This document shows positions 15,828 to 42,664 of a stretch of 64,000 nucleotides of DNA, piece after piece (the stretch's first letter is position 1; the number at the start of each line of letters is the position of its first letter). Made by a program: the position numbers and the translations under genes. The stretch is from a virus, in IMG/VR virus record IMGVR_UViG_3300027901_000002, positions 1-64,000 of that record; one strand, 5' to 3'. The notes beneath the pieces were generated by a model, which had not been told where the DNA came from, made no database searches, and saw only the letters and a list, made by a program, of their open reading frames with translations.

Positions 15828-17492
15828 TCATAATATCATATCATTGCTTATTTCTGATTCTGCTTTTAATTTATAAAAGTCTGTATCTATTAAACTAAGA
15901 AAAGGCTCGGCCTTGAGATAAACTTGACTTCTTTTTAAGTCTTTGTAATTTGGTACGAATCCTTCTTCTTTAATTTTTTCTATATCTTCTTCGTCAAACG
16001 ACAAAACTAATTCGTTTCCTTTGTAGGGAGAAACAAACTTACCGTTTAACTTTTTTGGAAATTTCTCAAAAGGTATAATGTAAGGGTTATCGCCAGGATT
16101 AAATATTTTGTTAAAATAATCTCTTGCGTTTCTTGCTCCCCTAGAATTATAGTGACCAACTACATATTCGTCCATGTCGTTGTTCAAAGCTCCTTTCGGG
16201 GCTATGTAATCCCAAGGAAATTTCTCAAAATTGTCGTCTATAACTTTCATTAACAACTTAAAATCACTAGGAATATCTTCTGAATCTAATAAGATATTCA
16301 CTAACACTTCTTGCATGTCTGCCGAAAACCTAGAAGTGTTTCTTTTCTTCATGGATATACCTTTAATCTCTAATTGAGGTGTGTCTAATCTAGTTCCATC
16401 CATCCACACGTTTCTCTTCACGTAATTTTTTGCCGCTTTAACTAAGAATTTATCCGAGATAGATTCTAAACCAACCTTCATAGTGTGGTCTTGTATGTTG
16501 TAGACTTCTCTTAAATAGTCGTCTATTGCGGTGTTAATATGTTTTACTAACATTGCTGCTTCCCATTCTGCACTTAATAAATTATCAGATTTTAGGATAG
16601 GAAAACAGGAATCTGTGTCTCCTCCCACTATCTCGTAGCCAAAATTCCTAACAACGTTCATCATTTTCTTAGTTAAATCTTGACACATAACAGTACAAGA
16701 GTTAAAAACGAATTGAGAATAATTTCGATCCGCTCTTAGACCCATTATTCCGAACCCACCATTCGTGAAAGTTTTTATTCTAAATTGTTTACCATCTAAC
16801 AATTTATAAAACGGATCTTCTGAATTTTTCACTTTCTTAAGGTATTCTTTCGCTCTTTGTTGAGCGCGAATTCTATAACTTAACCATTTAGAGAATTTCT
16901 TTTTGTTTACGGATTCTATATCTTTTCTAAAGAAACCAATTGGAGTTTCTATAAGGAATTTTCTATTCCATTTTTCGCCGTTTTCATCCCAAACCCATTC
17001 GTCGTCGTATTTTTTTATTTTAATAGCAGTCCTTATTCCAGCGTTTGAACTCATAATAGCGTTTGGATATTGCTTATTAAAATCTATCGTTGCCACCCAT
17101 ACAAACATTCCTTTTCTTAAAGGAGGCGGAACATATCCTCCTACCTTTTTACCAACATCGTGTAGTGAATTATATTCTACAATTTCTCCTCTTCTTTTAG
17201 CAACTTCTTCTAAGTCTTTAAGAGTTATCGTAAATTTATCTCCTATCTGTTCTTTTGGTTTTAACGGTAATCTCTCCCATTGTTGGTATTTCGTGTCAAA
17301 AACCATTTTATCTCTAAAATCTCTTATTGTGTCGTGGTCGTGCATTTTAGAGGAATAAATACCGTCTTCTGGAGGAGCTACGACTAACTCAGCTTGTTCG
17401 AATTGATCTTGAACTAAATTAAACTTCTCATTAAGAAGAACTAAACCTTCAACATCAACAAGATTATAATCAAGAAGTTTTTTGCAATTCAT
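15828..17492 (-). CDS. polB: Family B DNA polymerase, C-terminal subunit (ExoIII + polymerase domain)
   Basis: YNLVDV (ExoIII), DFNKQYPN (motif A), KTFTNGGFG (motif B), GGDTDS (motif C), KNY, KG. Confidence 0.92.
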   Translation of the reverse strand: MNCKKLLDYNLVDVEGLVLLNEKFNLVQDQFEQAELVVAPPEDGIYSSKMHDHDTIRDFRDKMVFDTKYQQWERLPLKPKEQIGDKFTITLKDLEEVAKRRGEIVEYNSLHDVGKKVGGYVPPPLRKGMFVWVATIDFNKQYPNAIMSSNAGIRTAIKIKKYDDEWVWDENGEKWNRKFLIETPIGFFRKDIESVNKKKFSKWLSYRIRAQQRAKEYLKKVKNSEDPFYKLLDGKQFRIKTFTNGGFGIMGLRADRNYSQFVFNSCTVMCQDLTKKMMNVVRNFGYEIVGGDTDSCFPILKSDNLLSAEWEAAMLVKHINTAIDDYLREVYNIQDHTMKVGLESISDKFLVKAAKNYVKRNVWMDGTRLDTPQLEIKGISMKKRNTSRFSADMQEVLVNILLDSEDIPSDFKLLMKVIDDNFEKFPWDYIAPKGALNNDMDEYVVGHYNSRGARNARDYFNKIFNPGDNPYIIPFEKFPKKLNGKFVSPYKGNELVLSFDEEDIEKIKEEGFVPNYKDLKRSQVYLKAEPFLSLIDTDFYKLKAESEISNDMIL

Positions 17493-17774: not shown

Positions 17775-18455
17775 TTACAACGGATAATACTTATCTTCAA
17801 CACCTAATATAAATTTATCGTAATAACACTTACTACAAAAATACACGTTTCTTGGATCGTGCATGTTTAACTTGAAAAATTTAAAACACCTAATACAGAG
17901 GTGTTCTTGTTGTTTCCACTTTTCTCTTTTTTCCCACTTGTCGCAAGTATCAGTATCGTAAGTCCAAGTTAAACATATTTCTGCTCCTTTGGAACAAAAC
18001 CCTTCTATTCTTTCGTACTGGTGCCAAAATTGACACGTTTTACACTGATTCTGCATATCTAAGATCTAAATCACTTCCACAATGTTCGCATATAAAATCT
18101 CTACCACCTAACGAAACGACGTGTTTACCATGAATACTTTTTACGATCATTAATTCAGTAGCACTCGTCATAAAATAAGTGTATTTTTTACAATACTGAC
18201 ATTCAAATCTCGCTATGTTCAAGGTAAATTGCCTTTTTTTCTTCTCTCCATTTCTTTTTCTATGATTTTAATTCCTTTACTAATAAGAGAATTTTCTTTT
18301 TTCAATTTAAAAATTTTTTCTCTGTTCCCTTTTCTTTTGTTTAACTCTTGTTTGTACATTTTTTCGAGTTCTTTGTCTGTTGCGTTGTAAGCTTTATTCC
18401 AAAATTGACCAAGAGCAATTTCCCTAGCCAATCCTTCTAAGCCTAACTTTTTCAT
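17775..18455 (-). other. Three small ORFs (two Cys-rich) inserted between the two PolB halves
   Basis: 17775-18056, 18040-18222 and 18219-18455, all overlapping their neighbours. Confidence 0.6.
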
Positions 18456-19698
18456 ATAATTTTTTCACCAAATTTTCTTTCTTTTTAGTGCCAACTAATT
18501 CTGGATTCGTAGGATCGTAATTAGAAGATAGATTATTCTTCCACATCTCCCATATTTGTTCTTTGTGAGGAACCTTACCAAATCCTAAGAAATAACTCAT
18601 GTATCCTTGTAGGTTTCCTTCTCTAAAATCGTTAAACTTCTTATGATACATAAAAATTTCGTTCGTATAAATCCAATCTATTTGACAAACGCCGTCTATT
18701 ACGACGCTTTGTTGATTGCCGTGAGACCTAAACCTCACACCTTTTAAATGGTTAGGTATAGGACTTAATTTCTGAATCTCGTCGAGCAAATCTAATTGTT
18801 TCGCTCTGTGATAAAGGTAAAGCATGTCAAAGCCGTTAAACCAATACTTACGAGAATATCCTTTCTTAGTAGAAATTTTATATCCTCCTTCTGTATTAAA
18901 ACCGTATTGAGCGTCTGGTCTAATAAGAGAATACCAATTAAAATAACTCTTCAACGTGTCTATTTCGTTGTCGTGAGAATGATTTATTACCGTGTTTATT
19001 TTATCGTATTCTTTATATCCTTTCAACGCTGGCACGTAATATTCTCCTCTTCTATTCCACTCGTTAGAGTTTATAATATTTACGCCATAAGGATGCCAGA
19101 AAAACCTATTGTAGGTTTCTGTGTAAGAATCGTACGCAGTTATGCTTATTATTTCACACTTTTCTGCGTCTTTGTAACCGTTAAAATTAGGGAAGACTGG
19201 TTCCGCGTTTGTTTCTATATCCCACGCTACAAATCTCACTGGAACGTAGAAGTGTTCGTCTTCTGAAAGTTCTGATATGTCGTCAACTTCCAACCATCTT
19301 TCTGTGTAATCGTCTGGAACGTTTATATAAGGAGTTCTTATTCCCATTTTTTCGATACACATTTTTTCCCATTTAACGTCTGATAAATAACTATGAGTAA
19401 ACAACTTTCTCAATTTTTTAACTTGCCAAGGGAAAGTCGTGTAACAAACTATTGTCTCTTCTCCATAATTAGAATTAGGAGCTTTATCAATTTTTATTAT
19501 TTCTTCTTGCTCTTCTGCTATCATTCTTTCTGCCGCTGGTACGTACATTTCTGGAGCAAGATTTTTTTTATCACACATAAAAACAGTGTGAAATTTCCAC
19601 TCCTTATCTCTACAAAAAAATAAGAGAATTGGAGCGTTGTACTTCTCTATATCACTATTGTTATTGTAGTACGAATAATTAACGATTTTTAGGTGCAT
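18424..19698 (-). CDS. polB: Family B DNA polymerase, N-terminal/3'-5' exonuclease subunit
   Basis: YLSDV.W, WDIET (ExoI), GFN...FD.LYL (ExoII), DG...ID, LG.GK. ExoIII is missing. Confidence 0.88.
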   Translation of the reverse strand: MHLKIVNYSYYNNNSDIEKYNAPILLFFCRDKEWKFHTVFMCDKKNLAPEMYVPAAERMIAEEQEEIIKIDKAPNSNYGEETIVCYTTFPWQVKKLRKLFTHSYLSDVKWEKMCIEKMGIRTPYINVPDDYTERWLEVDDISELSEDEHFYVPVRFVAWDIETNAEPVFPNFNGYKDAEKCEIISITAYDSYTETYNRFFWHPYGVNIINSNEWNRRGEYYVPALKGYKEYDKINTVINHSHDNEIDTLKSYFNWYSLIRPDAQYGFNTEGGYKISTKKGYSRKYWFNGFDMLYLYHRAKQLDLLDEIQKLSPIPNHLKGVRFRSHGNQQSVVIDGVCQIDWIYTNEIFMYHKKFNDFREGNLQGYMSYFLGFGKVPHKEQIWEMWKNNLSSNYDPTNPELVGTKKKENLVKKLYEKVRLRRIG

Positions 19699-38237: not shown

Positions 38238-38366
38238 TAAGGAAGGTCGGATTTGCACCGACGCTTTCTTAGGTGATGGTCTCAGTAAAGAAAGTCTAAA
38301 ATAGATAAGCGGACGTCCTTACCATCATTACCGTCAGTAGGCTTTACGCTATCTATTTTCTTCCTT
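38238..38366 (-). ncRNA. tRNA-like structured RNA (acceptor stem + T-arm, two extended kissing arms)
   Basis: AAGGAAG/CUUCCUU 7-bp terminal stem, GUCGG-UGCAAAU-CCGAC T-arm, 13-bp and 7-bp arms, complementary loops UGAUGGU/ACCAUCA. Confidence 0.75.
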
Positions 38367-38401
38367 TATTTTATTTTATTTTTAAATTTTCTTAACATAA
38401 A

Positions 38402-38423
38402 AATATTTTAAACATTTATAAAT
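38402..38423 (-). promoter_or_regulatory. Putative TATA-type promoter motif (copy 2), upstream of the tRNA-like RNA
   Basis: Plus-strand AATATTTTAAACATTTATAAAT. Confidence 0.5.
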
Positions 38424-38984
38424 GTGTATTCCCAGACGAAGCATTTTTATTATTTTCAGATTTTTAAAAATAATAAAATAATCAAAATTGAAGTCGCTAC
38501 GACGTTTCCAATCGAGGTATATAAAATAAACCTAAGAGTAGAGTTAATTTTTTGCGTTACGTTTAGTGTGTCTTGTAAAGTATCTAAAAGTTCGAGTATA
38601 TCTTCTTCCATACTTAAGAAGAGTCCTAGCTCGTACAAATCTTTTTTCGTGTAAGACGAATTACATTCTTTACAATAAAATCTTTCGTAAACCCAATTCA
38701 TTTCAATGTTTTTATGTATCGGACAATTCATTAGTTGTTCGCCATTATTAAGCAAAGCGTTATAATTACGATAGATACGCCTAAAAACAAGGAAATAACA
38801 AAAAGGGCGTATTTTTTAAGTTGGTTCAATTTTTTCGACCTTAAAAGTAGTTTCGTTATCGATTCTTTCTGGATCTTGATTCCAAATCCTTTTAGTTGCT
38901 TTTCTAATCGCTTCGCACTCGTCTTCCGCTTCTACTTCTACTCTGTAAATATCTATCAAAAATTCTTTTACTTCTACTTTATAT

Positions 38985-39428
38985 TTAACCACTCATATCC
39001 ACTCTTATTTCCATTATTATACCATCTTCGATTTTTGCGTAAACTGGATACAATCCATCTCCAAATCCAGAATCAAAAGATACAGCTAAACCATCGTGTC
39101 CAAGGTGGAAAGGTATTTGTTTGTAACTTTTTCCTTTTTTGTGAGAGACGTAATTGTAAGAAAATTCAAATTCTGGTTCGTAATGTATTCGAATCCATTG
39201 TTTAAGATCGTGTATTAAGTTATTAGGTGTTAATCCTAGTTCTTTTATTTCTTGTTCGTAGCTATCAAAATCTTTACCATATTTGTATATTTTACCGCTT
39301 TCTTTGTCTCGATATTCTCTTATATCTTCGTATTCGCCTTTTTTCCACCATTTAAGATAAGAAGGATCGCATATTATTAACTGTCCAGAATCTACTCCAA
39401 CTACGCCAATTTTTTTCCATTCTGTCAT
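38985..39428 (-). CDS. DUF4241-like protein
   Basis: GVDSGQL.ICDP and SGFGDGLYPVY. Confidence 0.75.
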   Translation of the reverse strand: MTEWKKIGVVGVDSGQLIICDPSYLKWWKKGEYEDIREYRDKESGKIYKYGKDFDSYEQEIKELGLTPNNLIHDLKQWIRIHYEPEFEFSYNYVSHKKGKSYKQIPFHLGHDGLAVSFDSGFGDGLYPVYAKIEDGIIMEIRVDMSG

Positions 39429-39566
39429 TTCGAGTCGGTAGAGTTCGTCAACTCAGTGTTTCACATGCATGTTACGCACACCCCTGATAGCTCCTTGCTG
39501 TTGATTGAGGTAAGTGCAATGAGCACGTCTCTCGCTCCTTAGGAGTCCGTCTTAGGAGGCACCGAT
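39429..39566 (-). ncRNA. BHB-flanked element C (138 nt): predicted intron/circular RNA
   Basis: CGAG-AAA-UCGGU ... ACCGA-CUCG-AAA; GC-rich and structured. Confidence 0.75.
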
Positions 39567-39979
39567 TTCTCGTCTAACTCTTTTAACCATCTATTTATAA
39601 AACCATTTATTTCGTGAGTTGGAACGTTATATCCGCTTGGACTACCTTCAGACCATTTGTTTAAAATTCTTTGCGTTTCTAACAAAACTAGTTCTGCCAT
39701 AGTTTTTCTTTCTTTCAGAAGGTGTTGTTTTCTACTTAATTCCGCTTTTTCGTACATTCCATCTCTATAAAGCATTCTTGCAAACTTCATTTTTTGACGC
39801 AATTCAAAAATACCTAAATAATGACGATTAAACATTTCCACCAAAAACCTAGAATTTCGTCCTCTTTTTTCGAGCATTTTAATTGCTTTGTAAGTTCGCA
39901 AAAAATTACCAATACTTAGTTTAATTGGATTAGTACTTATATTACTACAAATTGATTCTATTTTTTCTCTTTTTGACAT
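39539..39979 (-). CDS. Hypothetical protein; 3' end interrupted by BHB element C
   Basis: 146-aa ORF. The predicted spliced form ends ELDEK-stop. Confidence 0.6.
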   Translation of the reverse strand: MSKREKIESICSNISTNPIKLSIGNFLRTYKAIKMLEKRGRNSRFLVEMFNRHYLGIFELRQKMKFARMLYRDGMYEKAELSRKQHLLKERKTMAELVLLETQRILNKWSEGSPSGYNVPTHEINGFINRWLKELDEKSVPPKTDS

Positions 39980-40194
39980 TATTTTTCGTCTAATTTAGAT
40001 ATTGGACAATTTTCCCAATCTTGTGAATTGTAACAACCGCTAGTACATCCTCCTCCTTTGCCACATATTTCTCCACCACCTCTTAAATCTACAAGATATG
40101 GACATGTTGTTTTACAAATCCACGTAACATGGTTCCAAGGGCAGTTGTTTATGTATTCACAACCTATACAATAATCTACGCTATAACTTGGCAT
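39979..40194 (-). CDS. Small Cys-rich protein
   Basis: Likely ATG at 40194 (MPSYSVDYC...), 10 cysteines. Confidence 0.6.
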   Translation of the reverse strand: MPSYSVDYCIGCEYINNCPWNHVTWICKTTCPYLVDLRGGGEICGKGGGCTSGCYNSQDWENCPISKLDEK

Positions 40195-40196
40195 AT

Positions 40197-40341
40197 ATCG
40201 AGTCGGCCTCAATTGAGATTTTTGCTCTGGCTTGGGAAATTTGCATGCTTTCCAAAATAGTTAAAAGCTATAAAGTTTATAATCCAATGGGATCTCTAGT
40301 CCCTGTCTACCCCCCAAGAGGCCGTCGCAGAGCTTACCGAT
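40197..40341 (-). ncRNA. BHB-flanked element B (145 nt)
   Basis: CGAG-AAA-UCGGU ... GCCGA-CUCG-AUA; inner stems GCUCUG/CAGAGC and CUUGGG/CCCAAG. Confidence 0.7.
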
Positions 40342-40427
40342 TTCTCGTTCGGCGGGATGTAGTGACAATACGCACCGTCCCTATGTGACCTTCCTTATTA
40401 CTCTTACGAGCTATGCCCTATACCGAT

Positions 40428-40559
40428 TTCGAGTCAGCTGGAGCTCCCAAAGAACTTTCGGTTAGAGACGATATACGCTTCAACCTCCCCTGCATCCACT
40501 CGTGTAGAGTCTTTCTCTCTACTCAGGATCTACGGCTGTCCCGCTTCGTTCACGCTGAT
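40428..40559 (-). ncRNA. BHB-flanked element A (132 nt)
   Basis: CGAG-AAA-UCAGC ... GCUGA-CUCG-AAA; inner GUAGAG/CUCUAC hairpin. Confidence 0.75.
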
Positions 40560-40877
40560 TTCTCGTATTCTTTCTTGTCTTCTTTTCTTAATTTCTTCTA
40601 ACTCACTTTTCGGAACTGGTTTTAACTTTACGCCTTCCGCAAAAACCAATTTTAATTCTTTTACCAATTCTTGCTTTACGCCGCTAATTTTAGGAGCAAA
40701 TTTTGGAGGTTTCGGAGGAGGGTTCCAAGTAGGACGAGAAATAAATCTTTTCGTCCCAACGAACCTAAGAAAACTACTTCTATTTCTCCCTTCCAATTCT
40801 GCGTTTTCGTCTATTTTCTTTAGCTCCTCTTCATTAACCCAAAAACTAATTTTTATTGCTCTTTTTCGATGCGACAT
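40530..40877 (-). CDS. Ribbon-helix-helix (CopG-like) protein; 3' end interrupted by BHB element A
   Basis: ISFWVNEEELKKIDENA..EGRNRSSFLR. Confidence 0.75.
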   Translation of the reverse strand: MSHRKRAIKISFWVNEEELKKIDENAELEGRNRSSFLRFVGTKRFISRPTWNPPPKPPKFAPKISGVKQELVKELKLVFAEGVKLKPVPKSELEEIKKRRQERIREISVNEAGQP

Positions 40878-41205
40878 AAGAAACCGATGTGTTAACCTTT
40901 AAGAATTGGTAAATAAATTGCTGTTAATAATATAAACGCAAGTAAATGTACGACAACCCAAAATATAGCAATTACGATTGCTATTTTTTCGTCTTTATCC
41001 ATTTTAACCCAAATTTTTCAAAAAAATTACCAAACAATCTATCGAACAAAAATCAAGCCTACATTCGTAGTAGGTTCCTGTTGTTTTATTGTTTTCGTCT
41101 GAAATATTAATATCAAACGTGCAGTTATCCTTACTAGAAATAGTAATCCAACCAACACATTTTCTAACTTCGTCTAACGTTCCTTCTCTTCCACAACTAT
41201 CGCAT

Positions 41206-41589: not shown

Positions 41590-42664
41590 TTTGTAAAATC
41601 TCTTGTAAATACGTGTTCGCCGTGAAGTGTTCTTTCTATTGCGTTAAGATAAGTTGTTTCAAAAATAATCCATTTATCACAGTCCACACATTTATCGTTT
41701 TCTACTTTTCCTCCACAAAAACAACAAACAGCGTCGTGGAAGTCGGCAATAATAATTCTTACATTAACAAGCATTTTTATTAATTCTTGTTTATCCATGT
41801 TGAAATATTCAACAATTGGTAGATATTTTTCCATTTTAATCCTTGTCTCTATATATTTCAGCATAAGCTCGCATTGGCTTTATAACGTAAAAATAAAACG
41901 ACAACTTGTTAAACTTTGGATGTTTAACGTTTATTAAACATTCAGTAAGAACGTCGGCAAAAGTATCTAAATATATCGCGAGTTCTCCGCGAGACATGTC
42001 TTTAAAATTCTCGTGTCTGCTACCAACGCAAAAATTGTTACTAATTATTTTCATACCCTCCTCCTCAATTTTTATTTTATTTTTCGATTTTGTAAGCTAA
42101 CTTCGCTTCTCTTATTATTTCTTCGAATTTGTCCTTGTCTTCGTACCACCACAATATTGGCTCTGCACCAAAATCAGCAACTATTTGGTAGCCGCATACT
42201 GGACACTCCCATAAATCAGCGTGAAAAATATAATCGTTTTCTTTGTAAACTATAACTCCGTTTCTTTTACAATCTAAATATACGCCACAATCTACGCAAA
42301 TTTTTCTCCATTCGTTCATTTTATTTCCTCTTGTAATTTTTACACGTTCCTAAGTAAAAAGTTATAGGAATAAGGTGCTTTTTGCACCAATGATCTTTAC
42401 AATGTTTGCAACTAAGACAAACTTTCTTCATATTTCGCTTTCCCACCGTTCTATAATTGGCGTAAGGTCTGCAAACCTTGCAATTAAGAAAGTAATTCCC
42501 ACGACTGCATTTAATATTGCAAGAAACAAGAAAATACTAAAAAAACTTTTTTCGTCGTTTTTTAATGTTTCCATAGCAAACCAAACACACACGCCACTCA
42601 TTCCAAACATAAAGCAAATAGAAACAATTGCTATTATATTTACTATAAGTTCTCCAACTAACAT

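Follow-up and report, generated by a model that had tools for sequence, protein, structure and literature searches.

Putative relaxed bulge-helix-bulge intervening sequences between genes of an archaeal tailed virus

GC-rich elements with shared ends in a viral genome

We analyzed a 64,000-nucleotide stretch of viral DNA (positions 1 to 64,000 of IMG/VR record IMGVR_UViG_3300027901_000002; hereafter, the window), in which three GC-rich elements, named A, B, and C, and a piece located between A and B, named M, lie among small genes of the minus strand (Table 1). The ends of A, B, and C can pair with each other in a geometry resembling the bulge-helix-bulge (BHB) motif of archaeal introns. We read these elements as relaxed (HBh'-type) BHB intervening sequences that are located between the cistrons of a viral operon and are probably spliced by the host; M, alone or together with B, is possibly another such sequence. 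The window represents the first 64 kb of a complete genome of 99,014 bp with direct terminal repeats and a GC content of 33.5%, and its genes are almost all on the minus strand.

The initial annotation of this stretch had described three GC-rich inserts of 132, 145, and 138 nt with the same minus-strand ends. Our sequence and motif searches bear this out, the three lengths being those measured from cut to cut. The 5' half CGAGAAATCRGY is found exactly three times, all on the minus strand, as is the 3' half RCYGACTCGAWA, and each 3' half pairs, in order, with a 5' half; no further pair of such halves was found elsewhere in the 99-kb genome. The common end pattern of A, B, and C is A-CGAG-AAA-UCRGY ... 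RCYGA-CUCG-AWA-U, with ACGAGAAAUC and GACUCGAWAU as the conserved end sequences. These 12-nt ends are identical around unrelated interiors, and the motifs bracket the GC islands from end to end. The interiors have a GC content of 44–52%, versus 33.5% for the genome, and the GC content reaches 0.60 in 80-nt windows, the maximum of the genome, A-M-B being its strongest GC island. As first claimed, the interiors have no obvious sequence in common, and they could not be aligned (pairwise local scores with z from -1.3 to +1.0 relative to shuffles). The middle of B (40240-40290, minus strand) is AT-rich and holds CTTTATAG, which is similar to the TATA-like boxes of the AT-rich intergenic regions of the virus and may serve the downstream genes as an internal promoter.

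The right arm of the genome encodes a T4-type large terminase, a Mu-like portal, and baseplate J; the virus is therefore tailed. Encoded in the window are a family B DNA polymerase, a clamp loader best matched by the model of the archaeal RFC small subunit (E 5e-55), and a TFB. The latter is above the cutoff of PF00382, a family that matched archaea only among 14 control genomes, and is matched by NF001658 over almost its full length (E 8.5e-12). Since the virus encodes a TFB as well as an archaeal-type clamp loader, its host is, judging from these genes, an archaeon. The nearest cellular TFB-like clusters in a protein atlas are mostly from Promethearchaeota (Asgard), and DNA of the virus is present in marine sediment and seawater runs, which together give a lead to an Asgard host. 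The virus itself encodes neither EndA nor RtcB, and any processing of the elements would thus be performed by the host.

Two relatives are informative. The first, found via its TFB (53% identical), is a 75.9-kb fragment (G004) with the same gene neighborhood, and its contig ends 1.65 kb past the homolog of the open reading frame (ORF) at 42077-42319. In this terminal part, it carries on the coding strand a 190-nt GC island (51–55% GC, versus 31% for its genome) composed of two tandem elements, D1 and D2, that fill an intergenic gap, beginning 2 nt after a stop codon and finishing 7 nt before the next ATG. Of note, within the stretch G004 75052-75240 (L033 15052-15240, plus strand), D2 contains no stop in the frame of an ATG overlapping its 5' helix, so that translation of the spliced form as well as the unspliced one would continue into the small Cys-rich ORF downstream. 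The second relative (G001), found via its clamp loader, has a complete genome of 99.5 kb with proteins 30–71% identical to those of our virus and in the same order. Here, the nucleotidyltransferase and RFC-large genes are separated by approximately 280 nt of AT-rich intergenic DNA in place of the island that contains all of the elements and their small flanking genes. As G001 is without it, this locus is considered accessory, and the elements are, from these genome comparisons, accessory and variable between related viruses. A third relative, represented by both G005 and G006, starts downstream of this neighborhood and gave two weak candidates only.

Searches of public collections with the exact-end pattern gave no match in viral contigs. 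The nine metagenome and three genome contigs that matched (the latter from Polyangium, Bacteriovorax, and Rhizomicrobium) were rejected as chance matches in GC-rich bacterial DNA with no GC contrast to the flanks. A blastn search of the locus against GenBank phages also gave no match.

Table 1 Elements, flanking genes, and accessory island of the locus, with the two elements of the relative G004
Feature	Position	Strand	Size and composition	Ends or remarks
Element A (predicted intron)	40428..40559 (40559-40428 as read)	minus	132 nt cut to cut, GC 0.52	
A, 5' half	40565-40554	minus		CGAG-AAA-UCAGC
A, 3' half	40438-40427	minus		GCUGA-CUCG-AAA
Piece M (between A and B)	40342..40427	minus	86 nt, 49% GC	CUCG-AAA-UCGGU ... 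GCCGA-[A]-CGAG-AAA; BHB-like with one additional bulged A
Element B (predicted intron)	40197..40341	minus	145 nt, GC 0.44	AT-rich middle
B, 5' half	40347-40336	minus		CGAG-AAA-UCGGU
B, 3' half	40207-40196	minus		GCCGA-CUCG-AUA
Element C (predicted intron)	39429..39566	minus	138 nt	
C, 5' half	39572-39561	minus		CGAG-AAA-UCGGU
C, 3' half	39439-39428	minus		ACCGA-CUCG-AAA
Ribbon-helix-helix (NikA-like/CopG) gene	40530..40877	minus		Upstream of A-M-B; PF21983, E 2e-7
Small Cys-rich protein gene	39979..40194	minus		Downstream of A-M-B; no family match
ORF146	39539..39979	minus	146 aa unspliced	Upstream of C; last 9 codons intron-encoded
DUF4241-like gene	38985..39428	minus		Downstream of C; PF14025, E 6e-8
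Accessory island	38259..41205	minus	~2.9 kb	All elements and small flanking genes
G004 element D1		coding	85 nt	CUGA-AAU-CGGUU ... GACCG-UCAG-CAA
G004 element D2		coding	72 nt	GUGG-AAA-UUGGUGG ... CCACCAA-CCAU-AAG

Helix geometry, folding, and fit to gene boundaries

In all six elements (A, M, B, C, D1, and D2), the central helix H is exactly 4 bp long, being CGAG/CUCG in A, B, and C, CUCG/CGAG in M, CUGA/UCAG in D1, and GUGG/CCAU in D2, and its positions are paired in 24/24 cells. Between H and the inner helix h' sits a 5' bulge that is always 3 nt long (AAA or AAU, 6/6 elements). The inner helix has 5–7 bp, and 30/30 cells are paired over its first five positions. The nine pairs (four in H and five in h') are formed in 6/6 elements, with two or three pair types seen at each position. 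The CGAG/CUCG helix, the AAA bulge, and the A-U outer pair that had been proposed for the inserts are all present, and we could confirm the compensatory changes in the 5-bp inner helix (A-U vs G-C; C-G/U-G/U-A). Comparison with a related virus had been suggested as a check, and G004 keeps the geometry of a 4-bp helix and 3-nt bulge with a different sequence.

The outer helix is variable: 1 bp (A-U) in A, B, and C, none in D1, 3 bp in D2, and 5 bp in M, where it is made by the 3' half of A and the 5' half of B (GCUGA/UCGGU). The initial description of a strong helix on the insert side and an outer helix of about 1 bp is accurate for A, B, and C. An outer helix of at least 2 bp, which closes the 3' bulge in the canonical hBHBh' form, is found in M and D2 only. 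Because their outer helix is weak or absent, the elements were classified as relaxed HBh' rather than canonical.

Folding supports the pairing of the ends. The BHB pairs of A and C are found in the minimum-energy folds of a 406-nt region and a 201-nt stretch, respectively, and both helices of D1 and D2 are in their minimum-energy folds, while folds constrained to the BHB are above the minimum by 1.4 kcal/mol for B and 2.3 kcal/mol for M. We also scanned both strands of the genome for this geometry, requiring a 4-bp helix, three unpaired nucleotides, 5 bp or more in the inner helix, and a GC-rich interior. When only Watson-Crick pairs were allowed, the scan returned eight matches, three of which were A, B, and C. 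A further BHB-like candidate, GACU-AUG-UCUCGA ... UCGAGA-AGUC-GCU, lies outside the window (G000 66890-66998, minus strand, 52% GC; L041 2890-2998 at the locus level), within an 88-aa ORF (66770-67036), the frame of which would be kept by removal of the 102 nt from cut to cut; this candidate may be due to chance.

Cut sites were predicted using the rule for tRNA introns, that is, after the second nucleotide of the bulge; in tRNAs, the first two anticodon bases form part of the central helix, and splicing takes place at 37/38 (PMC4090602). Excision of C in this register would join GAC GAG AA to A TGA, and the 3' exon would begin at the ATG at 39428, the 3' cut being 0 nt from it. The predicted spliced ORF upstream of C would then end with ELDEK and a TGA (39427-39425) that overlaps this ATG, giving an ATGA stop/start overlap. 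Such ATGA endings are found in 26/175 minus-strand ORFs in a crude gene call of the genome. The ATG at 39428 is the true start of the DUF4241-like gene, since homologs of its product begin at the same residues. DUF4241 homologs that are 52% and 41% identical were found.

In the A-M-B array, the 3' cut of B precedes the ATG (40194) of the small Cys-rich ORF by 2 nt. The predicted exon junctions are GACGAGAA joined to AUGACAG and UACGAGAA joined to AUAUGCC. As the A-to-B and G004 junctions are intergenic, no frame test is possible for them. The order of the halves in A-M-B has a further consequence: removal of A recreates CGAG-AAA-UCGGU beside M, which can pair with the 3' half of B, so that M plus B becomes a single 231-nt unit with the ends of B. 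Because the 5' site is regenerated in this way, all 363 nt could be removed in steps.

Proposed host splicing and alternative explanations

The mechanism that we propose begins with the 5-bp inner helix and the CGAG/CUCG helix, which bring the ends of each insert together in the transcript, as the folds show. By analogy with the established biochemistry of EndA and RtcB, the host EndA would cleave each 3-nt bulge behind its second nucleotide; RtcB would then ligate the exons and circularize the excised pieces, giving circles of 132, 145, and 138 nt. In the A-M-B array, this would proceed stepwise until the whole 363 nt is removed. Splicing of C would recreate the ATGA overlap that is widespread in the genome, and the DUF4241-like gene therefore probably needs splicing for coupled translation. 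In archaea, it is well documented that RNAs are cleaved at BHB motifs and then ligated into circles (PMC12558985; PMC4090602), and the (alpha-beta)2 EndAs of Asgard and TACK archaea, which possess an L1 loop and have a broad specificity, process HBh' introns (PMC5829648).

The closest known systems share some, and only some, of these features, and the first is found in a cellular mRNA. A BHB intron in the cbf5 pre-mRNA of Crenarchaeota was reportedly described by Watanabe in 2002. Such introns are now known in tRNA, in rRNA, and in a few cellular mRNAs, such as cbf5 (Yokobori 2009, PMC2738675). As with the cbf5 intron, the viral elements would be tRNA-type BHB structures in an mRNA, destined for the host EndA and an RNA ligase rather than self-splicing. 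However, while the cbf5 intron interrupts a cellular coding sequence, the viral elements are intercistronic, in tandem, 72–145 nt long, GC-rich, and have identical ends within a genome.

Non-canonical HBh'/hBH archaeal tRNA introns are said to have been described by Marck and Grosjean in 2003. They are found in Crenarchaeota, Nanoarchaeota, and Asgard archaea and are cut by (alpha-beta)2 or epsilon2 EndAs (PMC4090602; PMC5829648). They resemble the viral elements in having a central 4-bp helix, a 3-nt bulge, a strong inner helix, and a weak or absent outer helix, and several per transcript are known, as in the viral arrays. In contrast to these introns, which are mostly short and for which the tRNA body gives context, the viral elements are located in mRNA without a tRNA scaffold.

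Circles excised at BHB motifs in archaea include the C/D box small RNA (sRNA) of the tRNA-Trp intron, circular pre-rRNA intermediates, and the permuted signal recognition particle (SRP) RNA of Thermoproteus (PMC12558985; PMC7758197). Here, too, BHB motifs in a longer precursor define the piece that is freed and then circularized by RtcB, as predicted for the virus, and the excised piece is the functional product in some cases. These circles have C/D box, rRNA, or SRP cargos, whereas those of the virus match no known family and are not conserved. We found no published BHB introns or BHB-derived circles in archaeal viruses, in agreement with the initial annotation, which knew of no described archaeal virus with such an array, although our coverage of the literature is incomplete. 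What is new here is the intercistronic position, a tandem array that could be spliced stepwise, and cassette-like identical ends with different cargos.

Several points weigh against splicing. The 1-bp outer helix of A, B, and C leaves the 3' cut site without a closing helix, and strict alpha4 or alpha'2 EndAs would therefore not cut these elements. The geometry is also not rare: 41% of composition-matched shuffles of A-M-B gave a match (mean of 0.59 per shuffle), and the probability of obtaining at least the observed number of matches was 0.036, 0.046, and 0.014 for the three islands tested in this manner. The scan that detected D1 and D2 requires exactly the BHB geometry, and the minimum-energy fold of D1 lengthens H to 6 bp, absorbing the 3' bulge. 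The identical H sequence of A, B, and C is more than EndA needs and is suggestive of common descent or of an additional sequence-specific factor. It should also be noted that the two ends of C share the 5-nt direct repeat GAAAT; an identical junction would therefore result from several registers of cutting or from a deletion at the DNA level, and the canonical register is not proven. A search for sequencing runs containing this sequence yielded no RNA run, and contigs from four DNA runs were only identical to the window, with no spliced or empty form, no joint, and no variant. Finally, the host lineage is placed no further than archaeon, with Asgard as a lead only, and we infer transcription through the locus, cleavage, ligation, and the circles themselves from the DNA sequence.

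Because shuffled sequences yield it fairly often, the bare geometry is only modest evidence. The weight of the case for BHB splicing instead comes from the identical ends, the bracketing of the GC islands, the cuts at gene boundaries, and the recurrence in a related genome. From the initial interpretation, the relaxed BHB structure is retained, in keeping with the archaeal virus, the junction at C, and a relative with a like geometry, while the analogy with permuted tRNAs is not.

This analogy had been drawn from the arrangement of the helices. ARAGORN detected no gene when A, M, B, C, M+B, and A+M+B were presented in doubled (circular) form, which speaks against permuted or split tRNAs, and a search of the window yielded neither tRNA nor tmRNA. 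The Rfam comparison that had been recommended for the inserts matched no RNA family: none passed the gathering threshold in the window, and relaxing the search to E 10 (G000 locus) or E 5 (G004 locus) gave only noise. C/D box sRNAs were rejected, as the C box RUGAUGA is in no element and the D box CUGA is only in A and C. The interiors had no significant complementarity to four viral genomes and were conserved neither between elements nor between viruses. Their folds are no more stable than those of dinucleotide shuffles (z of +0.5, +0.3, 0.0, and -0.85).

These results bear on the alternative that EndA cuts the same motifs to process rather than splice the RNA, dividing the polycistronic transcript, releasing the GC-rich RNAs, linear or circular, as products and leaving leaderless mRNAs. 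The 3' cuts located immediately before (C) or just ahead of (B) start codons would fit such mRNAs, and cassette-like identical ends around unrelated GC-rich interiors would fit RNA products. Moreover, GC-rich islands in AT-rich genomes are, as Klein, Misulovin and Eddy reportedly put forward in 2002, a classic signature of structured RNA genes. On the other hand, the interiors show neither the folding, the families, the C/D boxes, the permuted tRNAs, the viral complementarity, nor the conservation expected of RNA products, and translation of leaderless mRNA with a 5'-OH is not established in archaea; we regard this explanation as unlikely.

Identical ends with distinct GC-rich interiors suggest a reusable cassette with different RNA cargos. 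Decayed copies of a single element seem less likely, since neutral decay would drift toward the low GC content of the genome. Such a portable BHB cassette might yield an array of small circular RNAs from operons, and the circles, rather than the spliced mRNA, could be the selected product, for instance as decoys or stable regulators directed at the host. The initial annotation had likewise suggested that the circle may be the functional product; the different cargos within identical ends support this indirectly, whereas the folding, RNA family, and conservation results for the interiors speak against it. This idea is speculative, and we give it only a small chance; if true, it would be a first case in which the tRNA-splicing machinery of archaea makes circular RNAs encoded by a virus.

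The elements might instead be structured RNA or DNA elements unrelated to EndA, such as stabilizing or terminating structures, protein-binding sites, or sRNA genes, with a coincidental likeness to BHB motifs. Such a geometry is indeed not rare in GC-rich sequence, the conserved ends exceed the needs of EndA, and the repeats of A, M, and B can form local hairpins (GCYGA-loop-UCGGU). Nevertheless, the partner half needed for a local hairpin is lacking at the 5' end of A, at the 3' end of B, and at both ends of C; BHB pairing from end to end is the one structure shared by all elements. In G004, the layout of 4 bp, 3 nt, and 5 bp or more is preserved with a wholly different sequence, and the cuts at gene boundaries would be left unexplained, making a coincidence rather improbable. 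The least probable explanation, insertion at the DNA level of mobile elements similar to miniature inverted-repeat transposable elements (MITEs) at GAAAT with target duplication and no event at the RNA level, would account for the GAAAT(C) direct repeats flanking A and C and for the location in a variable island not found in G001, but we give it hardly any weight. True terminal inverted repeats are lacking, since segments of 4 nt and 3 nt shift the 5-bp complementary blocks relative to each other, in the manner of a BHB, and the interiors are unrelated, unlike those of MITE copies, which share sequence. In addition, there is no transposase nearby, the repeat of B is imperfect (GAAAT vs GATAT), and no other copies are present in the 99 kb or in public collections (viral, metagenome, and genome contigs).

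If the elements are spliced, as we favor, an archaeal virus would tie the expression of its accessory genes to the tRNA-splicing enzymes of its host, with introns between cistrons and not inside genes. BHB splicing would then no longer be limited to tRNA, rRNA, and very few cellular mRNAs but would include viral operons, and the locus would be a natural case of several circular RNAs freed in tandem from one transcript. Should the host be an Asgard archaeon, this would also bear on protein-dependent RNA splicing in the lineage closest to eukaryotes. The elements, whose sequences are short and completely known, could also be used as natural cassettes to produce circular RNAs.

Neighboring genes and other features of the genome

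The last 12 codons of the ribbon-helix-helix gene extend into element A. No homologs were found for ORF146, and single-protein searches of viral contigs detected no relatives of the DUF4241-like protein or of RFC-large. The island (38259-41205) is full of very small ORFs coding for Cys-rich or zinc-ribbon proteins, in addition to the ribbon-helix-helix protein, and the neighborhood in G004 is likewise a run of small Cys-rich ORFs. This content suggests a variable region of small DNA- or RNA-binding accessory proteins.

Upstream of the RFC-large gene and overlapping its listed GTG start is a structured, GC-richer stretch of approximately 129 nt (38238-38366, minus strand), for which ARAGORN and Rfam returned nothing. 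It holds a T-arm-like hairpin, GUCGG-UGCAAAU-CCGAC, closed by AAGGAAG/CUUCCUU, and lies in the island that G001 lacks.

Lastly, the family B DNA polymerase of the virus is split into two minus-strand ORFs (15828-17492 and 18424-19698) that are approximately 0.9 kb apart, one matching PF00136 and the other phrog_262 (DNA polymerase). The same two-part arrangement is also kept in the relative represented by G005 and G006.

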